A DNA stretch of 64,000 bases. It comes from Escherichia phage slur07. This document shows positions 45,757 to 54,164 of the stretch, piece after piece. Within the stretch, counting starts at the first letter, position 1. Each line of letters begins with the position of its first letter. The translations under genes and the position numbers were made by a program. Under the pieces are notes generated by a model. It searched no databases, had not been told where the DNA came from, and saw only the letters and a list, made by a program, of their open reading frames with translations. The stretch is taken from the sequence record NC_028780.1, one strand, 5' to 3'.

Positions 45757-46765
45757 TGAAAACAGTAATGAAAAGCTATTTTGGTAGTCATCTTTATGGA
45801 ACTTCTACCCCAGAATCTGATGTAGATTTTAAAGAAATTTTTGTTCCTCCTGCTCGCGATATTCTTATCGGAAATGTCAAAGAGCACATGAGTAAAAACA
45901 CTAACAACACATCATCTAAAACACTAAAGATGATATTGACCATGAACTATACAGTCTTAAATATTTCTTTAAATTAGCAGCAGATGGTGAAACTGTAGCA
46001 TTGGATATGCTTCACACTCCACCTGAACTAGTGGTTAAATCTGATTTGCCTGATGTGTGGAAGTTTATTCAAGACAACCGTTCTCGTTTTTATACGACTA
46101 ACATGAAATCCTATTTAGGATATGTCCGCAAGCAAGCTTCTAAATACGGCGTCAAGGGTTCTCGTTTGGCTGCATTACGTGATGTATTGAAAGTAGTTAA
46201 TCAAATCCCTGAGCAATGGGTTGATTACCAAGAAGACGGTTCCATTAAGCAGCGTCGTACTAAAGTTGAAGATATTAAGCATCGTCTTCCAGAAAACGAA
46301 TTCTGTGAATGGGTGTTCCATAATCATGAGAAAACAGGTCCACAAACGTTCTATACAGTGCTGGGTCGTAAATATCAGACAACGCTTTCTCTTATTGAGC
46401 TTAAGCAGTCACTGAACAAATTAGATGCTGAATATGGTGAACGTGCTCGTAAGGCCGAAGCTAATGAAGGTATTGATTGGAAAGCACTAAGTCATGCTTG
46501 TCGTGGTGGACTTCAACTATTGGAAATTTACAAAACTGGCGACTTGATTTATCCACTCCAAGATGCTCCATTTATTCTCGACGTGAAGTTGGGTAAACAT
46601 CCATTTAAAACAGTTCAAGAGTTTTTGGAAGATGTGGTCGATCAAGTAGAAGCAGCATCTACTGAAGCTTCTAAGAATGGTATGCCTAAAACAGTAGACA
46701 TGAGTTTCTGGGATGACTTCCTTGAGAAGGTCTATCTTGAAAACCACCGAAGTTATTATAAATGA
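45753..46765 (+). pseudogene. nucleotidyltransferase-fold gene interrupted by a -1 frameshift (programmed frameshift, pseudogene or sequencing error)
   Basis: Frame-0 ORF 45753-45977 (74 aa, GS...SDVD NTase motif) stops at TAG 45975-45977; the -1 frame is open from 45920 to 46765 (254+ codons); slippery heptamer T_TTA_AAT at 45968-45974; no SD before first downstream ATG (46007). Confidence 0.6.
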
Positions 46766-46767
46766 TA

Positions 46768-46791
46768 GGGAGCCTTCGGGCTCCCTTTTTT
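46768..46791 (+). terminator. rho-independent terminator
   Basis: GGGAGCC-TTCG-GGCTCCC + TTTTTT, directly followed by early promoter 46816-46845. Confidence 0.65.
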
Positions 46792-46801
46792 ATTTCAAAA
46801 A

Positions 46802-46858
46802 TTTTTCACAAAACTGTTTACAAGCATAAAGCTTTATGGTACTATACAACTATCAACT
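46802..46858 (+). repeat. promoter-module repeat, copy B (terminator plus early promoter)
   Basis: Same two blocks as 31272-31328; preceded by terminator 46768-46791. Confidence 0.75.
46816..46845 (+). promoter_or_regulatory. early promoter, GTTTAC / 18 bp / TACTAT
   Basis: GTTTAC 46816-46821, TACTAT 46840-46845; follows terminator 46768-46791. Confidence 0.65.
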
Positions 46859-46879
46859 GATACGGATTTGGAGAATAAA

Positions 46880-47848
46880 ATGAAAACTGTAACTATCAAT
46901 AAGGGTATCTACTTCGGTAAAGAAATCTCTGGAACTTTTGAGCTCTTAGGTGAATGGTTCCCAGATAATGCTCCGGTAGATGCGCAAGGAGATGGTAAAG
47001 TTTTTGTTGAAATTGACGGTAAACGTCGCGGTGTTTGGGTTTACAAATCAGACATTTCATATGATGGTGTAAAAGTTGAAGAAGTTAAAGAATCGTATGA
47101 AGATATGAAAACCCGCATTAATAAAAGATTTAATGTTATGGGAATGATGACGAATGGTATTATTAATGGAAATATTCGTTCATTAATTATCTCTGGTGCG
47201 GCGGGTATTGGTAAAACGTATTCTTTAGATAAAGCTTTAAATAAAGCAAATGATATTGGATACATTGAATATAAAAGCATTAACGGTAAAATCTCCGGTA
47301 TCGGTCTTTATGAACAGCTTTGGAATAATCGTGAAGAGAATTCTGTCCTTTTGATTGATGATGTGGATGTTTTCTCTGATATGGACATTCTTAATCTTCT
47401 GAAAGCTGCTCTGGACACTGGAGAGACCCGTAAAGTCTGCTGGAGCACCGCATCTTCTTACTTAGAAGAAAAAGGCATTGAGCGTGAGTTTGAATTTAAA
47501 GGAACGATTGTTTTTATCACAAACGTTGACATTGACCGCGAATTAGACCGTGGTACTAAACTTGCTCCACATTTACAAGCATTAGTGTCCCGCTCAGTTT
47601 ATTTGGATTTGGGTGTTCACACTAATGAAGAAATTATGGTCAGGGTTGAAGATGTTATTCTTTCAACTGACATGATGCAAAAGCGCGGTCTTTCTGATGA
47701 AGAAACTTATAAAGCATTATCATGGATGAAAGTCAATGTTAATCGTTTACGCAATGTTTCACTGCGTACTGCTCTTTATCTTGCTGACTTTATTATGACC
47801 GACAAAAATGGTTGGGAAGAAATTGCTGAGGTTACTCTTCTGAAATAA
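46880..47848 (+). CDS. AAA-type ATPase
   Basis: 322 aa from ATG 46880 with SD GGAGAA; Walker A GAAGIGKT, Walker B LLIDDVD; early promoter 46816-46845. Confidence 0.7.
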   Translation: MKTVTINKGIYFGKEISGTFELLGEWFPDNAPVDAQGDGKVFVEIDGKRRGVWVYKSDISYDGVKVEEVKESYEDMKTRINKRFNVMGMMTNGIINGNIRSLIISGAAGIGKTYSLDKALNKANDIGYIEYKSINGKISGIGLYEQLWNNREENSVLLIDDVDVFSDMDILNLLKAALDTGETRKVCWSTASSYLEEKGIEREFEFKGTIVFITNVDIDRELDRGTKLAPHLQALVSRSVYLDLGVHTNEEIMVRVEDVILSTDMMQKRGLSDEETYKALSWMKVNVNRLRNVSLRTALYLADFIMTDKNGWEEIAEVTLLK

Positions 47849-48284: not shown

Positions 48285-48312
48285 ACAACTATCAACTACG
48301 GAGGAACAGAAA

Positions 48313-48840
48313 ATGAATGCTAAAGATATTTTCAACTTGGTAAACTACAATGATGGTAAATTTAAATCTGAAGCTCAAAGCAAGTTCTTTAATGACATCT
48401 CAATTGGAGGTGAAATCACTGTTGATGGAGGACAAATTTACAAATCACGTTGGAATTGGATCGTTATTATTGATGAGATTGGTATTGTAGAAATTTACAA
48501 AAATACGAATAAAAATCGTACATTACACTGGTCTCGTGATACTAACGAACAGTACAAAAAGGATAAAGCATCTAAATTATCTCGTGTAACTCAAGAAGAT
48601 ATTGAGTTCATCAAGAAAGATATTTTGATGTATGATAACTTAATTGCTGAAGAGCAAGCTGTTATTGATAAATTTGATGAGATTAAAGCTTCTCGTGAAA
48701 TTCCTGATTTTATGAAAGAATCAGTAAATGAACGATACACTCTCATTTCAGAGCGTATTGAAACTTACAAAAAGCAAAGAGCTGAACGCCAGAATACTCT
48801 TCGGAAGTTTGAAGAACGGTTAAAGACGGTACTCGCATAA
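48313..48840 (+). CDS. hypothetical protein with C-terminal coiled coil
   Basis: 175 aa from ATG 48313 with SD GGAGGAA; early promoter 48255-48284. Confidence 0.55.
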   Translation: MNAKDIFNLVNYNDGKFKSEAQSKFFNDISIGGEITVDGGQIYKSRWNWIVIIDEIGIVEIYKNTNKNRTLHWSRDTNEQYKKDKASKLSRVTQEDIEFIKKDILMYDNLIAEEQAVIDKFDEIKASREIPDFMKESVNERYTLISERIETYKKQRAERQNTLRKFEERLKTVLA

Positions 48841-49310: not shown

Positions 49311-50198
49311 ATGTCAGTAGTAATTAATAATGTCAATGCAGTAATTAAATCTTTAGTTAATAAAAAATTGAATGAATGGACTGTACTTCGTCGTGGAGAG
49401 CCAGATAAATTTTTTCATAGATTTAACCCAACTTTGGATTTGAATGTTATTGACAGAGATGTTCATGCTGAAATATTAGATAAGTTTAAAGTTGATATTG
49501 GGTTTGGATTAGATAAACATTTACAACGAACAAACGGGTCTGGAATGGGTTTATCTAATCGCATCATGAAAGCCCTTAATAAAATTGGAGCGTTGTCTCG
49601 TATTAATGCGAGTGAAATCCTTCGCAATTATAATAAAGGATATGACCTTTATGGTCGACTAATGCCGAAATTATCATTCGATCAAATGATTGCGGATTTG
49701 TGGGAAAATCAACGACGATTATTAGCATTAGGCGCTCGATTAGCTAAAGGTCTAGATAAACAAATGATTTTTAAGACCAATAATACAGAAGACCTTAAAT
49801 GCTTTAAATTTAGTATTCGCGGCGATGATTATTATATCAGAGCTCGCTCTACAGATTATGTTAATATGGGGCATCATCTCTGTTTAGCTTTTGAAGTTTT
49901 AAAAGAAGCTGGAACGTTAGAATATTCATCTGGTGCTAAATGCCCGATTGGTTCAAATTGCATTTTAATTTATCGCCCGGATGAATCCAGTTTAACTAAA
50001 TTTCCTACAAAACCTGTACCAGTTCGTAGTAATGAAAAACATTCTGAGCAAATTGATTATTTTAATAAGCAAATTGAAGAGCTGAATATTTCTATTCAAC
50101 AATATGACGATGAAATTTTCAGACTATCTGGACTGAGTAGTAAAGCTAAATCTGAACGTGAAAAATTAATTAAAATTGTTGATTTACTTAAATCTTAA
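49311..50198 (+). CDS. hypothetical protein with C-terminal coiled coil (tandem set, 1 of 4)
   Basis: 295 aa from ATG 49311 with SD GAGGAAA; C-terminal ~35 aa heptad region. Confidence 0.6.
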   Translation: MSVVINNVNAVIKSLVNKKLNEWTVLRRGEPDKFFHRFNPTLDLNVIDRDVHAEILDKFKVDIGFGLDKHLQRTNGSGMGLSNRIMKALNKIGALSRINASEILRNYNKGYDLYGRLMPKLSFDQMIADLWENQRRLLALGARLAKGLDKQMIFKTNNTEDLKCFKFSIRGDDYYIRARSTDYVNMGHHLCLAFEVLKEAGTLEYSSGAKCPIGSNCILIYRPDESSLTKFPTKPVPVRSNEKHSEQIDYFNKQIEELNISIQQYDDEIFRLSGLSSKAKSEREKLIKIVDLLKS

Positions 50199-50206
50199 GG
50201 AACACC

Positions 50207-51226
50207 ATGAAAACTCGTTCTCAAATTGAAGATATGGTTCGTAATGCCAGCTATACTCGTGATGTTATGACATTTTTGTGCCAAAATAATTTAGACCCTG
50301 ATAAAGTTAATCGTGATATTCACTTTAAATATATGAATAGCAGTGAATGGTTACGTCATTTTAGTAAAGCGGGGTATATTACACAAATGACTGCTCGTGA
50401 GCAGCTCACCGATTTCTGTAAAACTATTGATTATAAAAATCCTCTATTTGTTCAAGGTGTTGGTCAGAGTAAGGTCGATTTATCATCTGGATTTTTCAAT
50501 CCAAATCATTATCGTATTGAATGGAGATTTATTGCTCTATTCCGTAAACAATTAAAGCAAATTTTGTCGACGGCTAGTCGATTAAAAGGTTCTGATATTA
50601 ACTTAAAGAATCTGAAATTTGATGGTTATACTCTTCAGATGGAAGTAAGACCATTAAAAGAAAATAATAGAACTGCACGAATTAGCTTTAAACCTAATAC
50701 AAAAAATTCTCTTTCAATTTGTGAATGCCTTAAATCACAGTTGACAGAAGCATTTAAGTATATGGATGTTGTTGCTGCTGTTCAATCTAAGATTTTACCT
50801 CGTTTTGAACGATTTAAGTTAGATACAACATCATATGAACTTGATATGATCGTTTCATTTAAATACGATTTTTTGAGAAAGGACGAAGTCCCGCAAGAGA
50901 AAAAGCAGGAAGTGCAAGATAACTTAAATTTATCCAATTACTTATCAAACGATCCTAAATTTTGGATGTATAGTTCAGGTAATAATGATGCATGGAAATT
51001 CAATAAAGTGAATTTTCTTCCTGTTGAAAATCCGAGTCTTAAACCTGTTGAAAAATGGCACGCGGATGCGATTGAGAAGTCTATCAAGGCAGTAGATGAT
51101 GAACTCGTTAAAGCGACCAATGAAGTGCTAGAAGCTGAAAAGGCGTTAGAACAAGCTCAAGAAAAAGTAAAAAATCTCACGAAGCAACGTTCTAAACTGA
51201 ACAATGCACTAAATGCACTGAACTAG
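50207..51226 (+). CDS. hypothetical protein with C-terminal coiled coil (tandem set, 2 of 4)
   Basis: 339 aa; SD AAGGAA; C-terminal heptad region ...LEAEKALEQAQEKVKNLTKQRSKLNNALNALN. Confidence 0.6.
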   Translation: MKTRSQIEDMVRNASYTRDVMTFLCQNNLDPDKVNRDIHFKYMNSSEWLRHFSKAGYITQMTAREQLTDFCKTIDYKNPLFVQGVGQSKVDLSSGFFNPNHYRIEWRFIALFRKQLKQILSTASRLKGSDINLKNLKFDGYTLQMEVRPLKENNRTARISFKPNTKNSLSICECLKSQLTEAFKYMDVVAAVQSKILPRFERFKLDTTSYELDMIVSFKYDFLRKDEVPQEKKQEVQDNLNLSNYLSNDPKFWMYSSGNNDAWKFNKVNFLPVENPSLKPVEKWHADAIEKSIKAVDDELVKATNEVLEAEKALEQAQEKVKNLTKQRSKLNNALNALN

Positions 51227-51255
51227 TTTACTTTGCCACAAGGATGTGGTATAAT
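51226..51255 (+). promoter_or_regulatory. early promoter, GTTTAC / 18 bp / TATAAT
   Basis: GTTTAC 51226-51231, TGTGGTATAAT with -10 at 51250-51255. Confidence 0.65.
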
Positions 51256-51283
51256 GTTCTTACTTTCTACTGAGGAGATTATT

Positions 51284-52285
51284 ATGACTCGTAACGAATA
51301 TATCAAATCATTCAATAGCGTTATTGATGATAAAGCTATACCGATGTTTGGTCAAAATATCGTTCTTTCTATTATCAATCAATGGCTCAATAGTGTTGAT
51401 GCAAGTATTGTTTCTTCTACTAAATTTATTCATGAAATTCGTAAAATTTCTAGCCGTGTAGATAAAGATGTTATCAAGAAAACTTTTAAAGAGTCTCGTC
51501 TTCTTTCATATTTGGTTAATCGGGATATTCTTGGTAATTTTGGGAAAGAAATTAAACGAACCAAAGATGTAGTAGGATATAATTGGTTCGGTGATGTTAA
51601 TTCTTATCATCTTAATAATAAAGAAGACCCTGAGAATATTTTTACTCGTCGTTGGATTAGTAATTTCAGACTTTTCAAAGGACAAATTCTAAAATCAGCT
51701 TCTAAATTATGTTATGGCGATTATCGTCAAATTCATCCTTTGGCTTCTGATATGATTATCGTAAAAGAATATGAGCTTGATGAAAATAAAGTAGCTATTT
51801 TTGTGAATTATGGATTTTTTACACCAAACGCTAACCAAAAGAATATTAATAAATTTTTCTCAATTGCTAGCACTATAACTCGTCAGTTAGAGACTGCATT
51901 ACTTTGTATGGAAACAGTAGAAAATATTCATACATATCCTTTTAAGAATATATGCGGATGGGAAGGATATAAAATTGTAATTAGTCTTCGTGAAGTGAAA
52001 TGTGCTTATTCACCGACTGATAAAGAAATTTACCAACAAAAATGTGAAGAAATTGTGAATACTCCTAAAGAAGAAACTACACTTGAGGAACTAATGGATA
52101 ATCTTGATGATTCGCCTGAATCGGTAGAAATTCGTCCAGAAGTTATTGCATTAGAAAAAGCTTATAAAGAAGCTCTAGAAATTTCTAATAAAGCGCAGAA
52201 AGAATATGAGCAGGCTAAAAAGATTTGGGAAGAATCCGTTAATCGTCTTGATCGTCTTGAACAAGCTTTACAGTTAATTAAGTAA
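51284..52285 (+). CDS. hypothetical protein with C-terminal coiled coil (tandem set, 3 of 4)
   Basis: 333 aa from ATG 51284 with SD GAGGAG; own early promoter 51226-51255; C-terminal heptad region. Confidence 0.6.
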   Translation: MTRNEYIKSFNSVIDDKAIPMFGQNIVLSIINQWLNSVDASIVSSTKFIHEIRKISSRVDKDVIKKTFKESRLLSYLVNRDILGNFGKEIKRTKDVVGYNWFGDVNSYHLNNKEDPENIFTRRWISNFRLFKGQILKSASKLCYGDYRQIHPLASDMIIVKEYELDENKVAIFVNYGFFTPNANQKNINKFFSIASTITRQLETALLCMETVENIHTYPFKNICGWEGYKIVISLREVKCAYSPTDKEIYQQKCEEIVNTPKEETTLEELMDNLDDSPESVEIRPEVIALEKAYKEALEISNKAQKEYEQAKKIWEESVNRLDRLEQALQLIK

Positions 52286-52337
52286 TTTAAAGCCAAGGAT
52301 GGCTCGGAGTATAAACCATTAACCAAGTGAGAAGAAT

Positions 52338-53267
52338 ATGAAAACTCGTAAACATTATATTGATTATTTTGACAGTCTTATTACTAAACATCGTAATTAT
52401 CAGATAGGACACAGAGCAGTAATCAATAATATTCTTCGTGATTTCCTTCAATATGTTGGTCAGGAAAATCATATCTGTAAAGATACTCAAACCGCTTATT
52501 CTCATTCGTTAGGCAATTTGCTTGAATGGTTTAAACGTTCTCGTATGTTATCTTCTACTGTAGCTCATGAGAACATTAAAAACTTTATGAAGCCGAGCTT
52601 CATTAAATCTGAGACATCTATAACCGATTTGGTTGAATTTACTATTGTTAATGATGTTAAAAAGACTCATTTGGCTGATTGGTTTTCTACCATTCCTGAA
52701 ACTAAATTTGCTGATAAATTTGCTTGTCAATTCAATGACCAAGTGAATATGCTTTTTAAGCATGCTCGCAAACTATTTACCGCGGGCGATGACCGTACAA
52801 ATACAGTTCATGTTAAGGACTGGGTTATTGCTGATGAAGTAACACACAAGCCAGGTGGTTCATCAGTATTAATTAATATCCAGGTTCCTTATTATTACTC
52901 ACGTAATCTTGGCACCATGACAGCTAAAGAAATTAATAAGCACAACAAAACTATTCGTTCGTTGTCTTATAAACTCCGCATGATGTTAAAAATTATGGAC
53001 GTAGTGGAAATGTATGACGAAACCGAAGATAATGGTTCAATGTTATACAGTTCACGCATTCTAATTAAACTGAAGAACCCTAATACATATAAGACAGTTG
53101 TAAAAGAGCCTAAAGTAGAAAAGGTTGATAATCTGAGTGAAGAACGTGAATATCTCAATGCCCGTTTGATTGAAGTTGAAGCCCAAATTACAGAACACGC
53201 CAAATTGTTAAAAGCTCTTAATGCAAAAGCAAATGGTTTACGTAATGCTATTGAGGTATTGAAATGA
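52338..53267 (+). CDS. hypothetical protein with C-terminal coiled coil (tandem set, 4 of 4)
   Basis: 309 aa; C-terminal heptad region ...[42 protein letters not shown]. Confidence 0.6.
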   Translation: MKTRKHYIDYFDSLITKHRNYQIGHRAVINNILRDFLQYVGQENHICKDTQTAYSHSLGNLLEWFKRSRMLSSTVAHENIKNFMKPSFIKSETSITDLVEFTIVNDVKKTHLADWFSTIPETKFADKFACQFNDQVNMLFKHARKLFTAGDDRTNTVHVKDWVIADEVTHKPGGSSVLINIQVPYYYSRNLGTMTAKEINKHNKTIRSLSYKLRMMLKIMDVVEMYDETEDNGSMLYSSRILIKLKNPNTYKTVVKEPKVEKVDNLSEEREYLNARLIEVEAQITEHAKLLKALNAKANGLRNAIEVLK

Positions 53268-53653
53268 AAAAGCGTTTATTAGAAGACATTGCAGCTTCAA
53301 GTAATTCCAGTTTAATTAAAATTATTATGGCTGGTGAGGAAGATGATATGGAAATGCGTGGAAAGATTCATGGCTGCGACGATTTAGATTTTAAACCTCC
53401 AGCATGGGATGCTATTATGGCTATGGTTGAACGACGTGAAAGAGCTTCTAAAAACGTTCCTAATTGCCCTGAATGCGGTACTGAACAAGTTCAATTGATT
53501 AACTGGCGTAAACCAGAGCTTGAATATAAATGCCGTCAATGTAAACATAAATTCAGTAAGCATGCTCCGGAAATGGTTAAATTGCCTGACTCTACTGAGT
53601 TCTTTAAAGAACTTGTGAGTGTTCAACCAATGCCTAATAATATTTTGGATTAA
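53264..53653 (+). CDS. zinc-ribbon protein
   Basis: 129 aa; CPECG ... 17 aa ... CRQCKHKF (C4 ribbon); ATGA overlap. Confidence 0.55.
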
Positions 53654-53900: not shown

Positions 53901-54164
53901 ATGTTTAAAGTATATGGTTATGATAGCAACATTCATAAATGTGTGTATTGCGATAATGCAAAACGTCTTTTGACCGTGAAGAAACAGCCGTTTGAATTTA
54001 TCAACATTATGCCGGAAAAAGGTGTTTTTGATGATGAGAAAATCGCTGAGCTTCTGACTAAACTAGGTCGTGATACTCAAATCGGCTTGACAATGCCCCA
54101 GGTATTTGCTCCCGATGGAAGTCATATTGGTGGATTTGACCAACTGCGAGAATATTTTAAATGA
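53901..54164 (+). CDS. nrdC: thioredoxin/glutaredoxin NrdC
   Basis: 87 aa MFKVYGYDSNIHKCVYCDNAKRLL... with CVYC redox motif; matches T4 NrdC. Confidence 0.92.
   Translation: MFKVYGYDSNIHKCVYCDNAKRLLTVKKQPFEFINIMPEKGVFDDEKIAELLTKLGRDTQIGLTMPQVFAPDGSHIGGFDQLREYFK

Follow-up and report, generated by a model that had tools for sequence, protein, structure and literature searches.

Srikant et al. (2022) reported that a clone of bacteriophage T4 with deletions fails to plate on ECOR17, that removal of the host gene dsr1, which encodes the SIR2-type defence protein Dsr1, restores plating, and that expression of T4 nrdC.5 by itself is enough to bring plating back on an MG1655 strain with dsr1 (PMC9391042). 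A 2026 preprint describes major capsid proteins of phages as what the tetratricopeptide repeat (TPR) sensor of Dsr1 recognises (PMC12803255). Yuan et al. count nrdC.1-6 as one of the large fragments that T4 can lose (PMC9825161). The product of a gene lying a few genes downstream, gp49.2, was described in a 2026 paper as an inhibitor of OLD (PMC13096335), and because of this the nrdC neighbourhood can be said to hold anti-defence genes. Two other described systems are comparable. DSAD1 binds the SIR2-type defence protein DSR2 and blocks its activation by a phage structural protein, which resembles, by analogy only, the action proposed below for NrdC.5. The T-even anti-defence islands (dmd-tifA-adfA; gp49.2 next to nrdC) are alike in being early, dispensable, host-range genes that multiply or disappear through recombination, but they hold unrelated small proteins, whereas nrdC.3-nrdC.6 encode paralogs of about 300-340 amino acids with one architecture. 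In the present work the four consecutive genes at positions 49311-53267 of a 64,000-nucleotide stretch of Escherichia phage slur07 (NC_028780.1), called the window, were analysed. The genes are nrdC.6, nrdC.5, nrdC.4 and nrdC.3, and they form one superfamily; the link is newly recognised, and the three Pfam families and three PHROGs of these proteins do not show it.

The identity of the genes was settled by sequence comparison. The region belongs to a Tequatrovirus (T4-like) genome, as a 6-kb query matched 742 phage records with a best identity of 98.1%, and the window showed 92% DNA identity to the T4 record U76612 across 7.5 kb. The gene order in U76612 is nrdC.11,.10,.9,.8,.7,.6,.5,.4,.3,.2,.1; the order, the orientation, the place between nrdC.7 and nrdC.2 and the position upstream of nrdC all agree for the set, and the glutaredoxin gene nrdC lies downstream of the nrdC.x block at 53901-54164. 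The initial annotation of this DNA had left open whether the genes correspond to the T4 nrdC.x genes; by these comparisons they are the known, long-annotated nrdC.6, nrdC.5, nrdC.4 and nrdC.3 of T4, in the same order, and not a new kind of element. The coordinates and lengths it gave were reproduced, all on the plus strand: nrdC.6 at 49311-50198 (295 amino acids; phrog_2257, E 2e-152), the most divergent paralog; nrdC.5 at 50207-51226 (339 amino acids); nrdC.4 at 51284-52285 (333 amino acids; phrog_1435, E 6e-169), whose product was modelled here; and nrdC.3 at 52338-53267 (309 amino acids; phrog_1435, E 6e-115), a paralog of nrdC.4 whose stop overlaps the start of nrdC.2 (ATGA). Each open reading frame (ORF) has an ATG start with a GAGG/AAGG-type Shine-Dalgarno sequence upstream.

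The second gene encodes the T4 NrdC.5 protein, with 96% amino acid identity and a full-length match to PF23882 (DUF7235) of 411.6 bits against a cut-off of 30. The Pfam scan gave no PF23882 match for NrdC.3, NrdC.4 and NrdC.6, so the second gene alone is a DUF7235 member; the other three share its architecture as remote homologs but have neither this match nor a known target. In precomputed annotation the homologs of NrdC.4 and NrdC.3 are tagged PF26897 and those of NrdC.6 PF26899, and the PHROG matches of all three proteins (phrog_1435 and phrog_2257) are full length. NCBIfam gave nothing useful for these proteins.

The initial annotation saw no obvious mutual similarity among the proteins before their C-terminal tails and pictured unrelated or hypervariable N-terminal domains on a shared oligomerisation module. 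This picture was overturned by more sensitive comparison. BLASTP aligned NrdC.3 with NrdC.4 at 24% identity over 226 N-terminal amino acids (E 1.9e-5), the only similarity found by pairwise BLAST among the four. The profile-profile comparison that it had recommended linked both NrdC.3 and NrdC.5 to NrdC.4. NrdC.3 and NrdC.4 fall in one PHROG (phrog_1435) and gave an hhalign probability of 97%. With the tails removed, residues 52-201 of NrdC.5 aligned with residues 68-224 of NrdC.4 (84%, E 7e-6, about 147 columns), and with the tails kept the two profiles gave 89% and E 2.5e-6. The natural NrdC.5::NrdC.3 fusion P0056 was excluded from the NrdC.5 alignment before hhalign; a direct hit between NrdC.5 and NrdC.3 was rejected as false, being caused by this chimera in the NrdC.5 alignment.

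When 1.84 billion representatives were searched exhaustively with a hidden Markov model of the NrdC.4/NrdC.3 family, no more than 10 proteins were returned; the ones whose source was traced with tblastn or BLASTP were phage-derived, and no bacterial or defence-system relative was found among the representatives. One of the 10, a 315-amino-acid protein of Klebsiella Marfavirus phages (P0233), bridges two of the families nearly end to end: it matched the NrdC.4 profile at 96.3% (E 2e-9) and the NrdC.5 profile at 93.7% (E 2e-7) over 238 columns. An N-terminal M(K)TR start is common to P0233, NrdC.3, NrdC.4 and NrdC.5; the MKTR start noticed earlier was found in two of the proteins, and a third starts MTRN. 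The N-terminal and central domains are homologous as well, which makes the genes whole-gene duplicates that have since diverged and not one tail placed on different heads. These profile and sequence matches argue strongly for common descent of nrdC.3, nrdC.4 and nrdC.5.

The fourth member was connected through structure prediction. An AlphaFold2 model of NrdC.4, built from a 25-sequence alignment, reached a mean predicted local distance difference test score (pLDDT) of 83 and a predicted template modelling (pTM) score of 0.67. Its first 84 residues form six helices; an alpha/beta domain follows at 88-235 (beta3-alpha2-beta2-alpha-beta2), then short helices and a low-confidence linker at about 240-283, the linker itself being placed at 261-283, and last a long helix at 285-332. 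When this model was searched against BFVD with Foldseek, the NrdC.6 model of phage JS10, a 49%-identical homolog of the window NrdC.6, was matched over its full length (E 1.9e-5, probability 1.0, 349 columns). About 15 other Straboviridae proteins of 280-374 amino acids were also matched over their full length, from phages of Acinetobacter (Acj61, two neighbouring accessions), Pectobacterium, Erwinia, Klebsiella, Enterobacter, Serratia and Yersinia. No solved structure close to the family was found. The NrdC.6 and NrdC.4 profiles align colinearly in hhalign, with the three best-conserved motifs of each family facing each other. Common descent of nrdC.6 with the other three is accordingly supported by the models to a moderate degree. 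All four proteins have one layout: the N-terminal domain is helical, an alpha/beta domain comes next, and a disordered linker leads to a C-terminal helix some 50 residues long.

The C-terminal heptad tail attributed to each protein by the initial annotation was recovered. It was examined with a heptad score, defined as the hydrophobic fraction at positions a and d minus the fraction of bulky hydrophobic, proline or glycine residues elsewhere, in 28-residue windows; this score is neither COILS nor Marcoil. An amphipathic a/d periodicity was present in the final 45-58 residues of each of the four proteins, the hydrophobic occupancy of a/d positions being 0.75-0.94 across the last 56 residues. 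The best windows compared with 200 whole-protein shuffles gave p = 0.00, 0.00, 0.02 and 0.045. The tail of NrdC.6 (residues 245-295; 50043-50195, plus strand) scored 0.85, a value reached by 0 of 200 shuffles, and that of NrdC.5 (280-339; 51044-51223, plus strand) scored 0.90 with an a/d occupancy of 0.94. In NrdC.4 (285-333; 52136-52282, plus strand; occupancy 0.81) the top window, 185-212, lies outside the tail, and the tail windows score at least 0.7. The NrdC.3 tail (265-309; 53130-53264, plus strand) scored 0.78 and is 76% identical to that of T4, against 40-57% for the core of the protein.

AlphaFold2 predicted the NrdC.4 tail as one helix at 285-332 (pLDDT blocks of 73-86), and in the NrdC.5 model nothing but the tail helix at 280-338 reached moderate confidence. 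By the heptad score and these models, the tails show the continuous a/d pattern, over at least 4-5 heptads of predicted helix, that marks coiled-coil proteins. The heptad register counted from the C-terminus is identical in NrdC.5, NrdC.4 and NrdC.3, and NrdC.6 follows the same phase after one extra terminal residue is allowed, as does the neighbouring protein NrdC.8. The tail is the best-conserved part of the NrdC.4 family alignment; across genera tails and heads showed 63-67% and 42-51% identity for NrdC.4, and 59-71% and 30-41% for NrdC.6. Tail-only hhalign comparisons between paralogs were too short for significance (1-35% probability), and for this reason the homology of the tails rests on position, length, common register and end motif.

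The family was also found to be polymorphic, in accordance with the initial description of a diversified tandem family. Inspection of the region upstream of nrdC revealed four recognisable members in Tequatrovirus, three each in Dhakavirus and Gaprivervirus (nrdC.6-, nrdC.5- and nrdC.4-like, with no nrdC.3), two in Mosigvirus (nrdC.6- and nrdC.3-like) and one in Marfavirus. Pectobacterium phage PM2 and Acinetobacter phage Konradin have one candidate each by size and heptad tail, and the PM2 candidate has 309 amino acids, the length of the PM2 protein among the BFVD matches. The presence and absence of the genes differ likewise in tblastn record counts, with 740 records for nrdC.6, 652 for nrdC.3, 552 for nrdC.4 and 532 for nrdC.5.

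Several individual variants were noted. In P0056, residues 145-271 of NrdC.5 are fused to residues 129-309 of NrdC.3 with nrdC.4 deleted, on contigs of up to 167 kb. The NrdC.6 protein of Shigella phage Sf25 (P0122, 378 amino acids) has an internal duplication of residues 176-258. The nrdC.6 gene of T4 itself (U76612, 6623-7450; 275 amino acids) is frameshifted near its end, so that T4 NrdC.6 is without the conserved heptad tail; tblastn of nrdC.6 on NC_000866.4 likewise gave a match in two pieces. In T2 (AP018813, MH751506) nrdC.4 is apparently split or truncated, with a two-piece match in AP018813 and a product of 155 amino acids, and a 158-amino-acid nrdC.4 product is annotated in phage G8; the BFVD matches to these short products of T2 and G8 are A0A2Z5WKJ2 and A0A482N302. 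In Dhakavirus and Gaprivervirus one or two extra ORFs of 26-71 amino acids lie between the nrdC.6-like and nrdC.5-like genes (5763-5978 in L001, 4855-5043 in L002 and 4744-5041 in L003), with no separate nrdC.7 at that spot.

From nrdC.11 to nrdC.3, it is nrdC.3 that differs most from T4. The products of nrdC.11 to nrdC.4 are 91-99% identical to those of T4, and NrdC.3 is only 61% identical. The divergence lies in the core, residues 91-270 (52608-53147, plus strand; 40-57% amino acid identity), and the ends are closer to T4 (83-90% for residues 1-60 and 73-100% for residues 271-309). The fall at DNA level is sharp: identity to T4 goes from 94-99% down to 58-77% within 52400-53200 and is still 76-83% through the aligned part of nrdC.2, the whole region of the drop being 52400-53600. 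The NrdC.2 protein has 129 amino acids here and 104 in T4, and the two are 76% identical. Compared with gp212 of the Mosigvirus p000v, the NrdC.3 core showed 87-97% identity in most 30-residue blocks and 53% in one block; its DNA identity to p000v, 84%, is about equal to that of nrdC between the two genera. Three allele classes of nrdC.3, at about 95%, 75% and 60% identity, were distinguished by tblastn. By these identities the nrdC.3/nrdC.2 stretch looks like a recombinant allele island with an nrdC.3 core matching that of p000v. With a core unlike that of T4 and like that of p000v, at least two old nrdC.3 allele lineages circulate in Tequatrovirus.

The four genes are old tandem duplicates of one gene, by now without any DNA similarity to each other. 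Their products are accessory proteins, early by the promoter before nrdC.4 and dispensable by the deletable nrdC.1-6 block and the natural deletion and fusion variants. The results are best accommodated if the family consists of stoichiometric inhibitors of host defence or of other host proteins, a reading that is held to be probable, with reserve. The globular head, especially the alpha/beta domain, would give target specificity and would evolve or be exchanged quickly, and the better-conserved tail may supply self-association or common docking. The most likely mechanism for NrdC.5, by analogy with DSAD1 on DSR2, would be early binding of Dsr1, probably at the sensor region; the NADase of Dsr1 would thereby stay off when the late phage proteins appear. 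NrdC.3, NrdC.4 and NrdC.6 might act likewise on other targets. Since the family includes a known anti-Dsr1 member, these three become good counter-defence candidates. The anti-defence role suggested by the initial annotation is documented for NrdC.5 only, through its published anti-Dsr1 activity (PMC9391042), and is plausible for the rest of the family. A bolder form, considered rather doubtful, would make the family a modular counter-defence platform with an exchangeable alpha/beta specificity cassette on a conserved scaffold, made of the N-terminal helices and of the in-phase C-terminal helix that serves oligomerisation or docking. Every paralog, and every nrdC.3 allele class, would have its own host sensor protein to neutralise, NrdC.5 would block the capsid-sensing TPR of Dsr1, and intragenic recombination would reassort specificities between phage genera. 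The idea of NrdC.5 as a tail-terminator decoy was set aside because the similarity was weak and the Dsr1 sensor is reported to recognise major capsid proteins. Tail terminator or tail completion proteins, with their lambda gpU-like fold, are at most a tentative structural comparison for the alpha/beta domain.

Several observations weigh against the main reading. A phenotype has been demonstrated for NrdC.5 only, and the literature search found no published NrdC.5 mechanism, binding or otherwise. NrdC.6, NrdC.5 and NrdC.4 are 93-96% identical to their T4 counterparts, and hypervariability within the genus is thus not seen for these three. The place of NrdC.6 in the family rests mainly on one Foldseek hit, between predicted models, whose TM-scores are moderate (0.41 and 0.47), and the hhalign comparison of NrdC.6 with NrdC.4 is statistically weak (P about 0.03). 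The AlphaFold2 input for NrdC.5 consisted of 16 sequences, mostly more than 80% identical, from which rows of the NrdC.4 family were deliberately excluded to avoid bias; the resulting model had a pLDDT of 43 and was unusable for fold search, and because of this the fold of NrdC.5 is inferred from profile matches only. The NrdC.5 tail is poorly conserved between genera (28-36%; head 21-24%), and a long amphipathic helix, as modelled here, need not be a coiled coil.

The main rival explanation is a non-defence role for the other three paralogs. It accepts the family as real and holds that NrdC.3, NrdC.4 and NrdC.6 act early in host takeover or phage physiology by binding conserved machinery of the host or the phage, the anti-Dsr1 activity of NrdC.5 being a specialised offshoot. 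The close identity of NrdC.6, NrdC.5 and NrdC.4 between slur07 and T4 fits this explanation, as does the wide occurrence of NrdC.6, the most widespread of the four with its 740 records and with a copy in all four genera of E. coli phages that were examined. The literature on NrdC.3, NrdC.4 and NrdC.6 held nothing beyond sequence notes, and no defence target was found there for them. Against this stand the dispensability of the nrdC.1-6 block on laboratory hosts, the change of copy number from one to four between genera, the natural variants in which nrdC.4 is absent or fused away, and the deep allelic divergence of the nrdC.3 core. These patterns of dispensability, copy number, loss and alleles are better fitted by host-specific accessory functions than by core physiology, and the host-takeover explanation is regarded as a credible but minority possibility.

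It is improbable that the four proteins, perhaps with NrdC.8, form one hetero-oligomer through in-phase C-terminal helices and act as a unit. The tails are indeed alike in length, heptad register and L-x-x-L-K-type C-terminal end; the genes stand side by side, with little space between them and in one direction; and the tails of NrdC.6, NrdC.4 and NrdC.3 are better conserved than the heads. However, plasmid-borne nrdC.5 is by itself enough to complement the T4 deletion mutant on cells with Dsr1, and the number of members differs between genera, one in Marfavirus, two in Mosigvirus and three in Dhakavirus and Gaprivervirus; a joint hetero-oligomer is less likely for these two reasons. The tail-less nrdC.6 of T4 and the weak tail-to-tail profile similarity speak against it as well. 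That the four genes are unrelated, with a common tail that arose by convergence or was acquired separately as a module, is very improbable: the absence of pairwise BLAST similarity besides NrdC.3/NrdC.4, the three separate families in Pfam and PHROGs and the lack of DNA repeats between the genes would agree with it, but for NrdC.3, NrdC.4 and NrdC.5 it is already contradicted by profile matches that, once the tails are cut off, span the N-terminal and central domains, by P0233 matching two families end to end and by the shared M(K)TR start, to which the colinear conserved motifs and the full-length structural match of the NrdC.4 model to an NrdC.6-family model are added.

The surrounding DNA was then compared with the T4 annotation. 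A consensus scan recovered the early promoter assigned earlier to the third gene at 51227-51255 on the plus strand (GTTTAC, 17 nucleotides, TGgTATAAT; 10/12, extended -10), at the position of 'early promoter 50.0' annotated in U76612 just upstream of nrdC.4. The flanking genes were also as described: downstream lies a protein with two CxxC pairs, which gave weak Pfam hits to zinc ribbons, and upstream one of 135 amino acids, whose hydrophobic segments are those of a typical membrane protein. The coiled-coil neighbour nrdC.8 (48313-48840, plus strand; 175 amino acids; phrog_2274) carries a heptad tail (windows 136-148) that ends RLKTVLA and shares the phase of the four tails. When NrdC.8 was tested through its 85%-identical p000v ortholog, hhalign gave no link to the four, and no homology of its N-terminal part to theirs was detected; NrdC.8 is thus a possible fifth protein with such a tail but not a demonstrated family member. 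The Shine-Dalgarno sequences of nrdC.4 (GAGGAG, 51265-51283) and nrdC.8 (GGAGGA, 48295-48312) contain GGAG, the target motif of the RegB endoribonuclease, and nrdC.8 was mentioned in a 2006 RegB paper. Only short chance matches were found as DNA repeats between the genes, and Rfam gave no family in the region; on these grounds a recent duplication or an RNA element was rejected.

Further upstream, a strong GC-rich hairpin with a T-run after nrdC.11 (46767-46786) matches a terminator annotated in T4, and a promoter-like site before nrdC.10 (46817-46845) matches the T4-annotated 'early promoter 54.4'. NrdC.10 (46868-47848) gave sub-threshold hits to AAA/STAND-type NTPases and has a P-loop, GAAGIGKT. 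NrdC.11 (46001-46765) corresponds to the C-terminal 254 amino acids of a 336-amino-acid T4 protein and carries a nucleotidyltransferase label in related phages. In GenBank records such as MW749001 and KX130864, nine or ten consecutive nrdC.x genes are labelled 'thioredoxin'. No thioredoxin or glutaredoxin Pfam hit was obtained for the four proteins even at E <= 1, nor for any of the nine nrdC.x proteins scanned, and the topology of the NrdC.4 model differs from the thioredoxin fold. A thioredoxin identity of the nrdC.x genes was rejected as a label artefact, and the label seems to have been copied from the locus name nrdC.x.

Most early accessory genes of T4, the best-studied phage, are still without a function. 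The useful results of this analysis are one superfamily with a known anti-defence member, the recognition of the 'thioredoxin' labels as artefactual and a sharply bounded divergent core in nrdC.3. If the four genes are one family, nrdC.3, nrdC.4 and nrdC.6 become specific, testable counter-defence candidates, and the same would apply to their relatives in the Straboviridae of Klebsiella, Acinetobacter, Pectobacterium and other hosts. The region most likely to determine specificity is marked by the nrdC.3 allele island, and this matters both for predicting host range and for selecting T4-like phages for therapy. A diversified anti-defence family, established for one member, is a plausible reading of the whole.

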